Part shown: one piece after another, positions 36,762 to 42,897 of the stretch
Layout: every line of letters starts with the position of its first letter
Numbering within the stretch: position 1 is the first letter of the stretch
Origin: Armatimonadota bacterium
GTDB lineage: Bacteria; Armatimonadota; UBA5829; DTLH01
NCBI GenBank assembly: GCA_038207085.1
Contig: JBBRAE010000015.1
Span: forward strand, 1-64,000
Direction of reading: 5' to 3'
DNA: 64,000 nt
Notes under the pieces: model-generated
What the model saw: only the letters and a program-made list of their open reading frames with translations
Told to the model about the DNA's origin: nothing
Databases searched by the model: none
Position numbers and translations under genes: made by a program

Positions 36762-38851
36762 TGAGAGTTCCTGTTGAGTGGATAAGTGAATATGTAGACA
36801 TTCAGGCCCCTATTGATGAGCTTGCTGACTTGCTCACGATGGCCGGGCTTGAGGTGGAGGAGATCCAGGCGATCTCACCCGACGACCTTGCACGAAGCGG
36901 CGGAGTTCCCGATAGCCGCGACGCGCGCGTCATGCTGACCAAAGTCACCCCGAACCGAGGCGACTGGCTCTCCATGATCGGCGTCGCCAGGGAGATTGCG
37001 GCCAACACGGGCTGGAAGTTCAAGCTTCCTGAGCCTCAGGTCGAAGGCGCCGGGGCGGACGTGGCGGGCCAGATCAAGATCAGCATCGCCGACCCCGACC
37101 TTTGCAATCGCTACGTCGGCATGGTCATCAGGGGTGTTCAGATCAAGGAGTCCCCGACCTGGCTCAAGAACCGTCTTGTTATGGCCGGTATGCGCCCGAT
37201 CAACAATATTGTCGACATCACAAACTACGTGATGCTTGAGCTTGGGCAGCCGCTCCACGCTTTTGACTACGACCTCGTTCAGGGACATGAGATCATCGTT
37301 CGCCGGGCAAAAGAGGGCGAGAAGATCACCTCGATCGACCAGGCTGAGCGCGAACTTCGTCCTGACACTCTCGTGATCGCCGACGCAGGCCGCGCAGTCG
37401 CGATCGCCGGGGTGATGGGCGGGTTTGAAAGCGAAGTCACTCACACTACGACCAATATTCTTCTTGAATCGGCAAACTTCGACGCGGTTTCCATCAGACG
37501 TACATCAAAAGTCCTTGGGCTTGTGACCGAGTCGAGCTATCGATTCGAGCGAGGCGTGGACCCTGAAATCGCCGCGCTTGCCGCCCCCCGAGCAGCCGAG
37601 CTTATGGCTGAACTCGCCGGTGGAGAGATCGCGTCGGGGATGGTCGACGTTTACCCCGGCAAGAAGGAACCGAAGAAGATCGTTGTGCGCCCAGAGCGCG
37701 TCGACGCGCTCCTTGGCGAGCATATTGACCCAGCTGCCGCCGTAAGCCACCTGATTGCGCTGCAGATTCCTGCAGAGTTCCTGGACGGCAAGATTGTCGC
37801 AACCGCGCCGAGCTTCAGGTCCGATATTGCGATCGAAGTGGATATCATTGAGGAGATCGCCCGCATCCACGGCTATGAGAACATCCTTGAAACGCTGCCT
37901 TCGTTCCCGCTTCAGGGCAAAGACAGCGATGCAGGTCTCTTTGTCGAGGAGCTTCGCCAGGCGATGATGGCCGCTGGCATGCAGGAAGTGCTCACTCACA
38001 GCGTGGTCGACCCGGTGAGTGTCGAGCTCTCAGGCTACGGAGAGAAGATCCTGCCGCTAAAGAACCCGCTTTCTGAAGATGTTTCCCGCATGCGCCCGAT
38101 GCTTGCGCCGAACCTGCTGCAGGTGATCACCCGCAACCAGGCCGTCGGGGCCAAAGACATCAGCATATTTGAGATCGGTAAGGTTTATCGGAGGACGGAC
38201 ACCGGCGGGATATACGAGTATCGATCCGCCGCCGGCGCGATGGTCGGCAGCCAGTGGGCGAGCGCGTGGAGCATCAATCGCGATACCCTTGCAGCGGACT
38301 TTTTCCTCACAAAAGGTGCGCTCATCGGCGCGCTCACCCGAATCGGTGTGAAGAACATCACAGTCGAGCCCGCGGAGCACCCACTGCTTCACCCGACCCG
38401 ATCTGCCCGTGTGCTGGTTGACGGCGAAGAGATCGGAATCCTTGGCGAGGCCTCTCCTGAGGCGCGCGAGAAGCTCGATCTTCGTGGCCGCCCTTGCGTC
38501 TTTGAGTTTGATGTCGAGAAGCTGATGGGCCTTGTCCCTGTGACTGTTGGCTACAAGCAGCTTCCGAGGTTCCCCGCGATTCACAGGCACATAGGCGTCG
38601 TGCTGAAGCGGGACCTGCCCTATGTCGATGTTTTGGGGAACATACGCCAGTCCGGCGGCGAGATTATCGAGGGCGTCGAGCTTCTCGATGTCTACACTGG
38701 CTCCCAGGTCGGCGCAGATGAGAAGAGTTTCACCCTTTCACTTGTTTTCCGCTCACCTGAGCGCACCCTTACCGACGATGAGGTCAATGGCGTCCTCGAA
38801 TCGGTCAAGACCAGACTGGCATCAACCTTCGAAGCCAGCTTCAGGGGATAA
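36761..38851 (+). CDS. pheT: Phenylalanine--tRNA ligase beta subunit (B2 domain absent)
   Basis: TPNRGD, GQPLHAFD, SYRFERG, FDX-ACB C-terminus. Confidence 0.96.
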   Translation: MRVPVEWISEYVDIQAPIDELADLLTMAGLEVEEIQAISPDDLARSGGVPDSRDARVMLTKVTPNRGDWLSMIGVAREIAANTGWKFKLPEPQVEGAGADVAGQIKISIADPDLCNRYVGMVIRGVQIKESPTWLKNRLVMAGMRPINNIVDITNYVMLELGQPLHAFDYDLVQGHEIIVRRAKEGEKITSIDQAERELRPDTLVIADAGRAVAIAGVMGGFESEVTHTTTNILLESANFDAVSIRRTSKVLGLVTESSYRFERGVDPEIAALAAPRAAELMAELAGGEIASGMVDVYPGKKEPKKIVVRPERVDALLGEHIDPAAAVSHLIALQIPAEFLDGKIVATAPSFRSDIAIEVDIIEEIARIHGYENILETLPSFPLQGKDSDAGLFVEELRQAMMAAGMQEVLTHSVVDPVSVELSGYGEKILPLKNPLSEDVSRMRPMLAPNLLQVITRNQAVGAKDISIFEIGKVYRRTDTGGIYEYRSAAGAMVGSQWASAWSINRDTLAADFFLTKGALIGALTRIGVKNITVEPAEHPLLHPTRSARVLVDGEEIGILGEASPEAREKLDLRGRPCVFEFDVEKLMGLVPVTVGYKQLPRFPAIHRHIGVVLKRDLPYVDVLGNIRQSGGEIIEGVELLDVYTGSQVGADEKSFTLSLVFRSPERTLTDDEVNGVLESVKTRLASTFEASFRG

Positions 38852-38938
38852 ACAGACCGGATATAGGAAGTGCCGGCTATAAATCGAAGGACCATACCAG
38901 ACCGCTGTGGAAGGAACTGCGGCGAAAGGAGACAAAAG

Positions 38939-39589
38939 ATGGTTGTGGATAGTCAGGGCTCTGTAGCTGACCTGGAGTCTATAATCTGCCGTCTGCGCGA
39001 CGTGATTTCCGCTCGCGTTATTACCGGGGACACCGGCGATATCGTGGAAATCCACGTGCTAACAGAGGCAACTAGAGCGCCAAAGCAGGTGGTTCGAGAT
39101 ATCGAGTCCGCTGTGATGGCAACACTGGGAATGGAGCTTGACCATAGGAAGGTCAGTGTGGCCCAGGTGGCAGGTAACGGCCACAAGCCTCAGCAGCAAG
39201 GACGCCTGAAGTTCTCCGATGTAAGTATTTCCCTGGACGGAAGCCGGGCCGAGGCAACGGTGCATCTCGGACGTAGTGGCGTCGTTCACACGGGCACAGC
39301 AAGCGGCCTAAGCTCCAGCAACAGTCAGATGAAGCTGGTCGCAACCGCGACACTTCGCGCTGTTGAAGACGCTGGTGCGGCCGATGGCACAATGGTGGTC
39401 GAGGATATGACCACTGGCGTGACCCTTGCCGGCAAGAACATAGTTGTCGTGCTTGTAAACAACGTGACTGACCGTGGGGATGATCTCCTCACTGGGTCGG
39501 CGGTTGTCAAGCAGGATTTATGGAAGGCCGTGGTTAATGCTACTCTAGACGCCATTAACAGGCGAGTTACATTGACAACCGGCGATTGA
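38939..39589 (+). CDS. Conserved hypothetical two-domain cytoplasmic protein
   Basis: EIHVL...PKQVVRDIES...DHRKVSVAQ domain plus alpha/beta C-terminal domain ending ATLDAINRR; AAGGAG before ATG 38939. Confidence 0.8.
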   Translation: MVVDSQGSVADLESIICRLRDVISARVITGDTGDIVEIHVLTEATRAPKQVVRDIESAVMATLGMELDHRKVSVAQVAGNGHKPQQQGRLKFSDVSISLDGSRAEATVHLGRSGVVHTGTASGLSSSNSQMKLVATATLRAVEDAGAADGTMVVEDMTTGVTLAGKNIVVVLVNNVTDRGDDLLTGSAVVKQDLWKAVVNATLDAINRRVTLTTGD

Positions 39590-39602
39590 TCCATGCTCTA
39601 CA

Positions 39603-39628
39603 AGGGGCGGGCGTAAGTGTTCGCCCCT
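39603..39628 (+). terminator. GC-rich hairpin (weak terminator or stabilising stem)
   Basis: AGGGGCGGGCG/TGTTCGCCCCT stem; no clear U-tract. Confidence 0.45.
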
Positions 39629-39632
39629 CATA

Positions 39633-39996
39633 TATAGTCTCAGGATTAGTCGATGATAGATTCGAGCCAATGACGCGAGCGAAATGGTATTGAGCGGTAA
39701 ATATTTCGACCCGAGCGGAGCGGTCTATTCATCCCTGTGAGCGGTACGGGGATAGATTAACGCGAAAGGGGTTGAAAATACAAATGGCACGTCTGTTCAA
39801 GGTTCTGATCGCTCTGGCGACTCTGGCTGCAACCTGCGGCGCAGCGTATAAGTTTTATCCGCCTCCCCCTATCTAGTGCTTAGCTTGTAGTTATGCACTT
39901 GATTGGCCGGAACGCAGGATGTAACCCGGTAAGTTTGAACCAGACTGCCCTCGTCGTTGGCTCTAATCTCTTATCGATACCCCTGAGATCGCTATG
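39633..39996 (+). ncRNA. Putative large structured RNA / structured small mRNA enclosing a peptide ORF
   Basis: Long-range pairing 39650-39675 with 39952-39977 and 39638-39644 with 39982-39988; several internal hairpins. Confidence 0.6.
39784..39876 (+). CDS. Unannotated 30-aa signal-peptide-like precursor MARLFKVLIALATLAATCGAAYKFYPPPPI
   Basis: ATG 39784 to TAG 39876; purine-rich AAAGGGGT upstream; basic n-region, hydrophobic h-region, short polar tail. Confidence 0.7.
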   Translation: MARLFKVLIALATLAATCGAAYKFYPPPPI

Positions 39997-40106
39997 GATA
40001 TCAAGATTCTACGGATGGACGGCATAATAGAATATTGGGACGATGTTTCGTCGGACTGGAGAAAGGCCTTCAACCGCGTTGACTTATAGCGGCTCAGGTG
40101 GATCGT

Positions 40107-41648
40107 ATGGCAAACAATAAGAGTCCTTATGACCTCTACTGCCGAATATCCATAGTGCTTGCGCTGGCTATGGCGTGTGCAGCGTATAGTGCTGTACCTC
40201 CCCGGCCCAACGCCTGGGCTGGAATGCTGGCTTTTCTCTTGCTCGCGATCTGTGCCGAGCTTATGCCTGTCAGCATCAGATCCAACCAGACGGAAATCGT
40301 CATCAGTTCTCCGATTCACTGGGTAGCCATGCTGCTCTACGGCCCGTTTGTGGCGACTGCGGTTGCGGTTACGGCTTATGGGGCGGTCAACGTGACCGCG
40401 TGGCTATCGGGGCGATATTTTCTCAAGCACGGCAGCGACGGAAAGACCGGGATATTTCGAGATATACTCGCGTTTTTGGCCGGATACTGGGGGGGGCGCG
40501 CGGACTACCCCGCGAGGTGGGCCCTCAAGCTGATTTCGGCGAACTGTGCCTCCCACGCGATACTGGCGTGCTCTGCCGCCGCTGTCTATTTGCTCGCCGG
40601 CGGCATCATCGGAGCCCACAACCTGCTTGCCTCCGCATCCACGTGGATGGTGATGCTTCAGGTGATTTTTCCGTTTATGCTCTCCGTCGGCGCGTATTTT
40701 CTTGTTGACGAGTCTCTCTACGTTATAGTAATCATCGTATTCGAGAACAGGCCCGAGGACTTTCGAGACTGGTATAGTTTTGCTCTGCGCTGGAAGATGC
40801 TGTTCGTCGATACTGTGCCGCTTAGCAGGAGGCAGTATCTGTTCCTTCCTCCAATTACGCTCTTGCTTGTGTATTTGTATATACACCTTGGCGTGTGGAG
40901 CGGTTTGGTTATCTTGGGGCCGTTTTTCGCCTTCAGGCTATCTGTGCAGAAGTCTGTAGAACAACAGCAGGTATACTTGGACACGATTGCGGCGCTTGGC
41001 ACGTATATGCAGCATTATCACCCCTACACAAGAGGGCACCTAAAGCGCGTAGCCGATATGTCGGAGAGGCTTGCCCGGGAGCTGCATCTGGCATCTGAGA
41101 CTGTGATTTTGATGCCGTACGCGGGGCTGTTGCACGACATTGGCAAAGTAGGGGTTTCAGAGGAAATCTTGGACAAGGTTGGAAAGCTCACAGATGAAGA
41201 ATGGGCGAGCATCAGGGAGCATCCGGTGAAAGGCGCGGAGATCGTCGCGCATCTCGACTTCCTGAACAGCACCGTAGACTGGATCAAGTATCATCACAAG
41301 TGGGCCGACGGCTCAGGGTACCCTGACGACGGCGCAAAAAACGGCGGCGTGCCCATCGAAGCCGCGATTATCGCCGTTGCCGACGCTTTTGACGCGATGA
41401 CCGACGACCGGGAAATGTCACTGGACTGGACATGCGACTCCTGCGGCTACAAACCCGAGGACGGCGTTCGTCCTGGCGTTTGCCCGAAGTGCAACGCGCC
41501 CAAGCACAGGGTATATCGACAGCCGCTTACGACCGGTGACGCTATAAACGAGCTGCGTAGAGGCGCTGGGTCGCAGTTCAATCCCGAGGTCGTAAAGGCA
41601 TTTCTTACTATGGTGGACAGGGAGGGAATCAGAGTTGGTGGAAGCTAG
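40107..41648 (+). CDS. Polytopic membrane HD-GYP phosphodiesterase with rubredoxin-like insertion
   Basis: Multi-TM N-terminus; YTRGH, LLHDIGK, HH..DGSGYP, VADAFDAMT; CDSC/CPKC insert. Confidence 0.9.
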   Translation: MANNKSPYDLYCRISIVLALAMACAAYSAVPPRPNAWAGMLAFLLLAICAELMPVSIRSNQTEIVISSPIHWVAMLLYGPFVATAVAVTAYGAVNVTAWLSGRYFLKHGSDGKTGIFRDILAFLAGYWGGRADYPARWALKLISANCASHAILACSAAAVYLLAGGIIGAHNLLASASTWMVMLQVIFPFMLSVGAYFLVDESLYVIVIIVFENRPEDFRDWYSFALRWKMLFVDTVPLSRRQYLFLPPITLLLVYLYIHLGVWSGLVILGPFFAFRLSVQKSVEQQQVYLDTIAALGTYMQHYHPYTRGHLKRVADMSERLARELHLASETVILMPYAGLLHDIGKVGVSEEILDKVGKLTDEEWASIREHPVKGAEIVAHLDFLNSTVDWIKYHHKWADGSGYPDDGAKNGGVPIEAAIIAVADAFDAMTDDREMSLDWTCDSCGYKPEDGVRPGVCPKCNAPKHRVYRQPLTTGDAINELRRGAGSQFNPEVVKAFLTMVDREGIRVGGS

Positions 41649-42318
41649 TCCCTGGACCACAGGTGTGATCTTCGCGGTCTCCGTATCCGTCGTGACGACG
41701 GTTGGGAGTTGGTATTACTCTGCCATATACCAGCCGCGCAAGATGGAGCGGTCGTATAAGAGGTCACTTTATACCCTTGCTGCGGCGGTCGAGACCCGGG
41801 ATTCGGGAACGATCGGTCACGCCGAGCGTGTGGCAAACTACGCCGTAGCGGTCGCTGACCTGCTCGGGATCAAGAAACGTGACCGGCTGAGGATCGAATA
41901 CGCGGCGCTCCTGCGGGACATCGGCAAAGTGAACGTCCCCGCGTCGCTTTTGAACAAGAAGACAAAGCTTGAGCCCGAAGAGTGGGAGAAAATCAAGGGG
42001 CACGCAAATGCGGGCGCTGAGATCGTAAGCGCTGTGCCTTTTTTGGCGTTTCTTGGCGACCTGATCCTCCATCACCACGAGTGTTGGGATGGGTCGGGGT
42101 ATCCAGACGGGCTTGTTGGTGATGAGATACCGCTTGGGGCGCGTATTCTCGCTGTAACGACTGATTATGATGCGATCACATCCGACCGTCCATATCACGA
42201 ATCGCGACCAGCAGAGGTTGCGGTAGACGAGATTAGGGCGGGGCGTGGGTCAAAGTATGACCCCGCGGTTGTTGACGCATTTATTAGGGTTCTCGAATCT
42301 CAAGGTATCGGTAACTAA
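41635..42318 (+). CDS. Single-TM HD-GYP domain protein, HD motif altered to RD
   Basis: GHAERV, LLRDIGK, HHHECWDGSGYP, DYDAITSDRPYH. Confidence 0.9.
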   Translation: MVEASPWTTGVIFAVSVSVVTTVGSWYYSAIYQPRKMERSYKRSLYTLAAAVETRDSGTIGHAERVANYAVAVADLLGIKKRDRLRIEYAALLRDIGKVNVPASLLNKKTKLEPEEWEKIKGHANAGAEIVSAVPFLAFLGDLILHHHECWDGSGYPDGLVGDEIPLGARILAVTTDYDAITSDRPYHESRPAEVAVDEIRAGRGSKYDPAVVDAFIRVLESQGIGN

Positions 42319-42897
42319 ATGGCTGAAGCAGCAGCAATACTTTCATTCATAATCGCACTTTTCAGGCGCGGACGCCCTGCGGGGCTTGCAGATCTGTTTG
42401 ACAACGTAAGGCATTTTTGGCTGGTGCTGGTGCCGTTTGTGATGGTTATCGTCATGTCAGTTGGCAACGGACGGGTTTCGCCGGCGGTCTGGCTGCCGCT
42501 CAGCGCCTGGCTGCACGTGATCTACTCGGTGGCGCTCGTTGCGTTTTTCGCCGTGAACCTGAACATCCGGGGTATGTGGTCGCTGCTGCTGGGGCAGGGG
42601 CTGAATATGCTGCCGATCCTAGCCAATGGAGGCAAAATGCCGATCTCCGTATGGGCCGGAAGGGTCGCGGGGATGCCGGAGTTACCAAGTATGATGCTAA
42701 GGCACGTGGCAATGTCATCTTCCAGCCGGTTCAACTGGCTCGGGGACTTTATCCCTATCCCTGTGAAACTGAAGTTTCTGCTGATTGGCGGCGTACTGAG
42801 CCCGGGAGACGTGTTCATTGCGATCGGCCTCTTCGTGTTGATCCAGTGCGCTATGTGCCCTGTGAAAAAGAAGGTCTCCGGAGCCCAGAATGCCTGA
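42319..42897 (+). CDS. DUF5317-family membrane protein
   Basis: GLN....ANGGKMP, WLGDFI, LSPGDVFI motifs recognised from memory as DUF5317. Confidence 0.8.
   Translation: MAEAAAILSFIIALFRRGRPAGLADLFDNVRHFWLVLVPFVMVIVMSVGNGRVSPAVWLPLSAWLHVIYSVALVAFFAVNLNIRGMWSLLLGQGLNMLPILANGGKMPISVWAGRVAGMPELPSMMLRHVAMSSSSRFNWLGDFIPIPVKLKFLLIGGVLSPGDVFIAIGLFVLIQCAMCPVKKKVSGAQNA

Follow-up and report, generated by a model that had tools for sequence, protein, structure and literature searches.

A conserved long-range helix closes a candidate structured small-protein mRNA domain in Armatimonadota

Positions 39633-39996 of a 64,000-nucleotide (nt) stretch of Armatimonadota DNA (assembly GCA_038207085.1, contig JBBRAE010000015.1, forward strand; hereafter the window, whose numbering is used throughout) hold a long imperfect duplex with a small open reading frame (ORF) between its arms. 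The inner part of this duplex, which we call P1, has been kept in every aligned homologue through compensatory changes, and we consider it very probably a functional RNA helix that closes a small-ORF mRNA domain. Our preferred explanation of the whole, to which we give an even chance, is that P1 is the closing helix of an undescribed, conserved and structured small-protein mRNA domain of Armatimonadota, whose translation would be gated at a second helix, P2.

The two arms (TCGATGATAGATTCGAGCCAATGACG at 39650-39675, plus strand, and its partner CGTCGTTGGCTCTAATCTCTTATCGA at 39952-39977) pair as a preliminary description of this DNA had read them, through 22 Watson-Crick and 2 G-U pairs with 2 mismatches, and a repeat search of the window returned the same pair as 31-nt arms, 81% complementary and 266 nt apart. 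The extensions noted outward of the arms, TCTCAGG/CCTGAGA and TATAG/CTATG, both occur and both form in the minimum free energy (MFE) fold of 39625-40000. This fold reaches -145.2 kcal/mol on the plus strand (z -4.6, with 0 of 100 shuffles matching it) vs. -119.8 kcal/mol on the minus strand (z -2.85). The best long-range ungapped stem in 39600-40020 scored 42, compared to 20.8±2.6 (maximum 29) in dinucleotide shuffles, none of which (0/100) reached 42. The stem encloses the peptide gene; the start of the ORF is corrected here to the ATG at 39784 (39784-39876 including the stop codon, 30 amino acids (aa)). Of the two hairpins proposed 3′ of the ORF, the one directly behind it (39875-39899, plus strand) is found in the MFE fold, and here the 3′ part is variable between relatives; the other (39928-39949) pairs with the start of the ORF instead of forming a local hairpin.

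The region was located in 19 of 61 related genomes searched at the DNA level, and 18 loci were read. All 18 have the same order. An upstream gene ends first (...KQDLWKAVVNATLDAINRR...), and after it come a 5′ arm containing the core GAGCCAACGGCG, a number of AGCG motifs, the sequence CGAAAGGGGTTGA, the small ORF, a variable stretch and a 3′ arm, CGCCGTTGGCTCA. RNAalifold, run on an alignment of these loci, predicted the 13-base pair (bp) closing helix P1, a helix P2 between the Shine-Dalgarno (SD) sequence and an anti-SD strand, and a hairpin P3 with AGCG in its loop. A covariance model was built from the same alignment and then used for genome searches. In the window it matches 39661-39966 and, together with the pair counts, places the strands of the P1 core at 39663-39675 (CGAGCCAATGACG) and 39952-39964 (CGTCGTTGGCTCT), both on the plus strand. 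The domain is thus ~305 nt long here, or ~365 nt including a local extension of the stem, and measures 230-320 nt, about 270 nt, across homologues. Exactly one full-length match was returned in 35 of the 53 genomes of the class, distributed over its families as follows: f1, which includes the source genome, 6/6; f2, 14/28; f3, 2/2; f4, 4/6; and f5, 9/11.

Covariation supports P1 at the level of the RNA. In the 35-sequence model alignment, 98.2% of P1 cells form standard pairs, compared to 83.6±0.8% after shuffling of the 3′ letters and 21.6-47.7% when partners are slid by 1-3 columns; 0 of 500 shuffles reached the observed pairing, 0 of 500 reached the covariation score, and 12 of the 13 pairs have changed on both sides. 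The whole 41-pair structure is paired in 93.4% of cells in 29 sequences, vs. 83.2% shuffled and at most 44.3% slid; because these alignments are fitted to the model structure and come from related genomes, the shuffle counts should not be read as probabilities. Across families the helix has been rebuilt from letters other than those of the window (GAGCCAAUGACG), namely AAGCCAACAGCG/CGCUGUUGGCUU, GGAUCGGCGGCU/AGCCGUCGGUCC, GGGCCGACGG, GGACCGAUAU and CUUAAGCCGGCGAUGA/UCAUCGCCGGCUUAAG. In f4 it is an unrelated helix of ~28 bp, and in f2 a core of 12-13 bp is joined by a second short helix of ~5 bp across a bulge. Model scores range from 34.7 to 245 bits on the plus strand vs. at most 20.7 bits on the reverse strand and, together with the G-U pairs, identify the plus strand as the functional one. 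The hint of selection at the RNA level that had been taken from the G-U pairs alone is therefore borne out by the covariation and the strand-specific scores. We regard RNA-level selection on the plus strand as well supported, and P1, P2 and P3 are under structural selection. Two further helices, P1b (GGCAG/CUGCC) and P2b, recur in per-sequence folds, in a register that differs between families.

The duplex had been described as ~40 bp long, and this length is not conserved throughout. The inner 13 bp (39663-39675/39952-39964) are universal, being present in all 35 aligned homologues, so that no homologous locus without the stem came to light; the outer ~25 bp are peculiar to the source lineage. 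The outer 5′ strand (39633-39662, with TATAG, TCTCAGG and TCGATGATAGATT) pairs in the MFE fold with the outer 3′ strand (39965-39996), which is also delimited by the reading of the arms and by the repeat search; both lie on the plus strand. They have no counterpart in the 17 other loci compared or in metagenome relatives, with the exception of an unrelated 37-bp extension at one locus, L006. Genome and metagenome contigs were searched for closer relatives in which the outer extension could be tested for covariation, and none was close enough. In the L006 extension (genome G004), the 5′ side consists of short tandem (CCATGAC)n repeats and the 3′ side of (GGTTAGA)n-like ones. In the window, a GC-rich hairpin without a U-tract (GGGGCG...CGCCCC, 39604-39629) directly follows the upstream stop codon and falls in the ~60 nt extra that the source lineage has ahead of the stem.

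Only one copy of the element exists in the 3.35-Mb assembly: the 401-nt stretch was found once, as was the 26-nt arm when up to 3 mismatches were allowed, which removes the mobile-element reading; the arms were not found to recur as element ends. Outside the class, the covariance model matched in 2 of ~136 genomes, which come from other classes of Armatimonadota and represent two further families. Metagenome loci, retrieved via the upstream protein only, matched in 9 of 10 cases, the tenth ending 57 nt after the gene, and all matches are Armatimonadota by record titles and source names. A loose DNA pattern applied to 401 genomes of the phylum gave six matches in five out-of-class genomes. Five of these (L041-L045), together with L018 from the DNA search of related genomes, failed the covariance model and were set aside as chance; the sixth (the second in G119) lay outside that check, and the pattern missed real f4 copies. 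A cmscan search of 38500-41000 on both strands against Rfam 15 (E up to 10) returned only a chance match to a long non-coding RNA outside the element (12.7 bits, E 6.3). Two irregular loci were also seen. A degenerate copy (L091; G018:C97, 575-963) keeps P1, the SD and the peptide ORF and is missing the 5′ domain with the AGCG motifs and the anti-SD; repeated TTAGTTGCTTCGGTATCC units follow it up to the contig end. At G035:C5:1382968-1383603, the upstream-gene match is broken by one TGA and two TAG codons and the adjoining RNA element is intact (233 bits); this genome is rated 60% complete, and assembly errors are possible for the interrupted gene.

Within the domain, the SD region (GGGGTTGAA, 39768-39776, plus strand), in which CGAAAGGGGTTGA is invariant (18/18), forms the 3′ strand of P2. 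The SD sits 8-13 nt ahead of the start codon in 29/29 sequences and pairs, as GGGGUUGA in the RNA, with UCGACCC or UCAACCC ~60 nt upstream (TCGACCC at 39706-39712, plus strand, in the window). The two strands are nearly invariant in most families, and the pair has been replaced jointly three times, giving four co-varying versions across lineages: UCAACCC/GGGGUUGA, ACCUUC/GAAGGU in f4, ACCUCC/GGAGGU in G086 and CUCC/GGAG in G110. On these folding models, the conserved anti-SD:SD helix is predicted to mask the ribosome-binding site. Pairing of the 5′ and 3′ ends controls some type I toxin mRNAs, and this analogy had been drawn for the duplex. Folding in silico does not support such a lock on translation: the mean predicted unpaired probability of the SD (n=29) is 0.32 in the full element and 0.31 when the 3′ arm is removed, when the RNA is cut after the ORF or when the 5′ arm is removed, so that accessibility is unchanged, and the anti-SD is local. 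A conserved alternative partner for the anti-SD, searched for as ungapped pairings of at least 6 nt, did not recur in the 29 sequences.

The 5′ part of the domain is rich in AGCG. In the window, the motif region (39678-39743, plus strand) has five copies, at 39678, 39693, 39714, 39719 and 39740, with an invariant GAGCGGAGCG at 39713-39722. Among the 29 sequences, the ~105-nt 5′ part contains 3-6 copies, on average 4.7 vs. 0.67 expected from shuffles (~7-fold), and the remaining ~170 nt contain 0-2. The invariant tandem GAGCGRAGCG belongs to this set, as does the loop of P3 (39731-39753, plus strand; ATCCCTG/CGGGGAT, loop TGAGCGGTA), a hairpin in which 7/7 pairs have changed on both sides. In MFE folds, 57% of the AGCG-motif nucleotides are unpaired.

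The small ORF (39784-39876, plus strand; MARLFKVLIALATLAATCGAAYKFYPPPPI, stop codon TAG) is intact in 29/29 homologues, where it encodes 27-32 aa. Its variability by codon position is 0.24/0.13/0.46, the third position being the most variable, and it is under purifying selection. The peptide has the consensus M-(K/S)-(R/T)-L-x-K-V-L-(L/I/V)-(A/G)-L-A-x-L-A-x-(T/S)-x-G-(A/S)-x-(W/F)-x-x-(W/F/Y)-P-P-(P/R/K)-stop, or in short M.RL.KVL.ALA.LA..G...W..WPP-stop, with a basic N-terminus, a helix of ~17 hydrophobic residues (Leu 4, 8, 11 and 14) and an aromatic, proline-rich end. Its sequence suggests either a membrane micro-protein with a single pass or a signal peptide followed by ~8 further aa. Conserved residues (L4, K6, L8, L11, L14 and G19) span its whole length, which argues for a functional peptide rather than a mere decoding sensor. 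Fifteen of the 29 peptides end in PPP-stop, mostly after W, Y or F, and PP lies within the last residues of all 29; f4 has WPKWP or WPKLPA. A Pro at +1 blocks signal-peptidase cleavage and many f2 peptides have one there, which makes cleavage after AGA doubtful. A lipoprotein reading of LAATCG was discarded, as f2 and f5 have Ala or Ser in place of this Cys. A protein atlas search with the peptide gave no usable match. In per-sequence folds of f1 and f3, the Thr-Cys-Gly codons of the peptide (ACCUGCGG, ORF codons ~16-19) pair with a conserved GCAGGU past the stop codon; f2, with Ala replacing Cys, lacks this pairing and the longer 3′ part. The stop codon lies 42-90 nt from the 3′ arm.

The RNA unit is always flanked by the same two genes and is inherited together with them. 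Counted from the ATG at 38939, the product of the upstream gene (ORF239; 38939-39589, plus strand) has 216 aa; the mechanically called ORF begins at the GTG at 38870. This protein has no Pfam family, and its 643 homologues are all hypothetical and from Armatimonadota wherever the source is named; it constitutes an undescribed family. One source labels two of the homologues 'predicted nucleic-acid-binding protein', and PF08502 is assigned to one. In the AlphaFold model (predicted local distance difference test score (pLDDT) 84.6), an N-terminal alpha-beta-beta-alpha-beta domain, which matches only common ferredoxin-like domains (Z ~8-9), is followed by a regulatory domain of the LeuA/citramalate-synthase (CMS) type. 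The C-terminal half matched the leucine/isoleucine-binding regulatory domain of LeuA (1sr9, 3fig) and CMS (3f6h) in Foldseek at E 8e-6 to 3e-4, and 3f6g_B in VIA-align (Z 9.5, root-mean-square deviation 3.2, 109 aligned, model residues 88-211). The same half is similar to the C-terminal part of ~450-500-aa ORFs elsewhere in the same genomes, which from their sequences we take to be LeuA-type synthases. A strong orthologue of the upstream protein is present in exactly the 35 class genomes with the RNA, the other 18 having neither, and in 35/35 genomes it shares contig and strand with the RNA, at a distance of -52 to 169 nt. Both out-of-class genomes have the gene too.

Downstream of the element lies a gene for a membrane HD_5/HD protein of the HD-GYP type (40098-41648, plus strand; Pfam HD_5 2.3e-28), and a same-strand HD homologue follows the element in 30/33 loci, the three misses having 113-500 nt of flank. 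The RNA is a single-copy unit inherited together with an upstream gene for a LeuA-type regulatory domain and a downstream membrane HD gene. In the window, the membrane HD protein is followed by another HD_5 protein, this one soluble, and by a membrane protein with DUF5317 (41635-42897), and in the f4 genome G042, ORFs of 231 and 190 aa, of matching sizes, follow an HD-size ORF; the conserved block may exceed three genes.

Spacing and promoter-like sequences vary around this common order. In 17 of 27 measurable loci, only 4-15 nt separate the upstream stop codon from P1, leaving no room for a promoter, and the domain is thus probably the tail of the upstream gene's transcript in most lineages. 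In f5 the stop codon lies 5-8 nt ahead of P1 in 7/8 loci and the predicted HD start, like all downstream start codons assigned mechanically, 13-21 nt past the element. In the window, the upstream stop codon is ~73 nt away from the P1 core and 44-49 nt away from the extended stem, with 131 nt to the next start. The HD start of f1 and f2 is 16-490 nt past the element, often behind a -10-like GGCATAAT box. This box (40021-40028 here) is present in many f1/f2 loci and not in f5, and is TG-extended in several relatives. Taken together with an upstream box in other lineages (see below), the position of the promoter relative to the element seems to differ between lineages. A simple promoter and terminator scan of 38800-40300 found no sigma-70-like promoter, a result that is uninformative where host promoters are uncharacterized, and one terminator-like site, inside the HD gene. 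A candidate conserved promoter near the end of the upstream coding sequence (TGCTACACT, spanning codons N-A-T-L) was dropped on inspection by eye, since synonymous positions vary freely there among loci.

These features can be assembled into the following model. P1 would join the two ends of the domain and, at the end of the upstream transcript in most lineages, may insulate the fold from flanking mRNA and protect its ends. Where P1 is at least 20 bp long, as in the window (~40 bp, imperfect), at L006 (37 bp) and in f4 (~28 bp), it could also be an RNase III site that releases a discrete peptide mRNA; the genome encodes RNase III (TIGR02191, 240.6 bits vs. a cut-off of 166.25). A processing or stability role for P1 is thus possible, though we rate it somewhat below an even chance. 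Of the fates originally proposed for the peptide mRNA, excision from the operon transcript is plausible and circularization is unsupported. Translation of the peptide would be gated at P2 rather than at P1, and a trans-acting factor that reads the AGCG loops might open or lock P2. We rate this last step as less likely than not. The co-inherited, sensor-like upstream protein would be the first candidate for such a factor.

Several observations weigh against this model, besides the fitting of the alignments noted above. The f2 helix, of only ~13+5 bp, means that RNase III cleavage cannot be the universal function of P1; a clamp or scaffold role can be. The search for ungapped alternative partners of the anti-SD was negative, which leaves no switch mechanism to be seen in the sequence. 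The model of the upstream protein contains no recognized RNA-binding fold, and its C-terminal domain resembles an amino-acid-binding regulatory domain. A single deletion can remove neighboring genes together and so produce co-occurrence, and the genomes, being related, do not count as independent cases. The f4 genus g26 and genome G086 carry a TATAAT-type box between the upstream gene and the element, which may thus have a promoter of its own there. Finally, we infer the transcript ends, the processing and even the co-transcription.

Other explanations of the duplex fare less well on the same data. A chance inverted repeat, or a pair of mobile-element ends, would account for the inverted-repeat form itself and nothing further; given a stem score of 42 vs. 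20.8±2.6 in shuffles, a single genomic copy, the lack of any Rfam or repeat family and compensatory changes at a fixed genomic position, its probability is negligible. A type I toxin-antitoxin-like locus, in which the mRNA of a membrane-toxin peptide is kept inert by 5′-3′ pairing until 3′ processing, as for hok and aapA1, would fit the hydrophobic ~30-aa peptide found in 29/29 homologues, the masked SD and the long-range 5′-3′ helix. AapA1 is likewise a 30-aa toxin, and its full-length mRNA has a fold that impedes translation and is activated by 3′ processing (PMC5416894). However, our element is single-copy and strictly syntenic across several families of the phylum, rather than patchy, multi-copy or mobile, and removal of either arm leaves the predicted accessibility of the SD unchanged, with the anti-SD being local. 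A crude sigma-70-like scan of the minus strand in the 29 loci gave matches inside the element in only 2/29, at differing positions, none of them recurrent, although such a scan would miss other promoter types and antitoxins encoded in trans, and the reverse strand scores no higher than 20.7 bits with the covariance model. The lack of a recurrent antisense promoter, together with the single-copy, syntenic and vertical distribution, makes a type I system quite improbable. A bridge for translational coupling is very improbable too. Here P1 would set the upstream stop codon beside the HD start, and terminating ribosomes would unwind P1 or re-initiate on the far side of its base. The close spacing on both sides of the element in f5 suits this idea, but it fails in the window, with its larger distances, and in many f1/f2 loci, and it depends on mechanically assigned start codons.

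The short distance to the predicted HD start in f5, the presence of the HD gene in 30/33 loci and the promoter-like box ahead of the element in f4 g26 and G086, which would make it a 5′ leader there, would also suit a leader or arrest-peptide device for the HD gene. A ribosome would pause at W-P-P-(P)-stop in response to elongation factor P, prolyl-tRNA or some small molecule, and the pause would change the folding around P1 and thereby HD expression. Roughly half the peptides, with their aromatic-Pro-Pro-Pro-stop ends, are like polyproline stalling peptides, and WPPP and YPPP are among the strong XPPP stalling motifs in E. coli (PMC4176338, PMC11669330). Yet the motif is not universal: the tail varies (PPR, PPK, PPRG, PPGL, PPA, PPQ, and WPKWP in f4), the stop codon is beyond a ribosome footprint from the 3′ arm, and the HD start of f1 and f2 lies 16-490 nt past the element, often behind the -10-like box. 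Moreover, neither a terminator/antiterminator pair nor a masked downstream ribosome-binding site was seen, no regulated downstream structure was identified, and residues are conserved along the whole peptide. Pulling of the SecM/MifM type is unlikely as well, as the N-terminus of a 27-32-aa peptide would hardly leave the exit tunnel. We therefore consider a device of this kind unlikely, and rate as improbable a dual-function RNA in the manner of RNAIII, which would encode the peptide, use its AGCG loops as seeds or as a protein sponge, and have P1 as a stable scaffold. The repeated and often unpaired AGCG motifs are consistent with this, as are the large multi-helix fold and the 5′-3′ closure around a small ORF with structurally restrained translation; however, the motif is only 4 nt long, and the strict linkage to two neighboring genes suggests a local, cis-acting use.

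An extended version of the P2-gating model can be drawn as a relay, in which the upstream protein senses an amino acid and binds the AGCG loops, the SD is unmasked, and the 28-30-aa transmembrane micro-protein is made and docks onto the membrane domain of the HD-GYP-type phosphodiesterase, tuning cyclic-di-GMP turnover. Taken as a whole, this chain is a long shot. Its docking step was addressed by co-folding the peptide with residues 1-300 of the HD protein, both entered as alignments. The result was graded 'weak support' (median 0.33; 0.42, 0.33 and 0.15) vs. 0.00 for the best control, with a partner pLDDT of 50 or more and an agreement between runs of 76% of contacts or better. In the calibration, this mark was reached by 116 of 157 solved complexes and by 2 of 215 mismatched pairs, and scores up to 0.60 were given by only 18 of the 157 solved complexes and by both mismatches that passed, so that a pass in this range is more often wrong than right unless the interaction is likely beforehand. 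The co-folding is the sole direct hint, and a weak one, for docking of the peptide on the HD protein.

Parts of the domain recall known systems. Sequences flanking rRNAs and phage T7 early mRNAs pair into processing duplexes, the RNase III stalks. Here too, flanking sequences pair into a long duplex that encloses an RNA, with ~40 bp of imperfect helix in a genome that has RNase III; unlike in the stalks, the enclosed RNA is a small mRNA and not an rRNA, the f2 helix is short, and cleavage is a prediction. Leaders that sequester the SD include riboswitch expression platforms and the CsrA and TRAP targets with their repeated short motifs. The Armatimonadota element shares with them a conserved unpaired core beside the anti-SD:SD helix and short motifs in loops, but its regulated ORF lies inside the fold and is closed behind by P1, no alternative conformer was found for it among ungapped pairings, and no Rfam family matches it. 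With hok/Sok and with aapA1/IsoA1 of Helicobacter pylori (PMC5416894) it has in common a ~30-aa hydrophobic ORF in a folded mRNA with a masked SD and a 5′-3′ helix; it differs in an anti-SD that is local and independent of the end helix, in that no antisense gene was detected in the sigma-70-like scan, and in its single-copy, syntenic and vertical inheritance. Staphylococcus aureus RNAIII encodes delta-hemolysin, a peptide of 26 aa that is translated with a delay, for which an intramolecular contact made by the 3′ end may be responsible (PMC12612679). It resembles our element as a large multi-helix RNA with repeated short loop motifs and a small ORF (hld) restrained by structure. RNAIII is free-standing and driven by quorum sensing, with known C-rich seed loops and targets, whereas the Armatimonadota RNA lies inside or at the end of an operon and has an AGCG motif, with no relation in sequence or in Rfam.

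The general kind is a familiar one: type I toxin mRNAs and RNAIII likewise combine a folded mRNA and a masked SD with 5′ and 3′ ends that close around a small ORF. What is new is the combination of a local SD mask with an independent clamp, the repeated AGCG motif, a housekeeping-like vertical inheritance and a fixed partnership with two genes; a literature search found no described structured RNA of such a kind for Armatimonadota. With ~270 nt, three covarying helices, a repeated 4-nt motif, an embedded small protein under purifying selection and a strict linkage to a sensor-like protein and a cyclic-di-GMP-type phosphodiesterase, the element is a strong candidate for a new RNA family. It provides a testable handle on two protein families of unknown function, and in a little-studied phylum it offers a natural case of translation gating of a micro-protein and of end-to-end mRNA closure. 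If the relay were true, it would constitute a new RNA-protein-micropeptide route from metabolism to second-messenger signaling.

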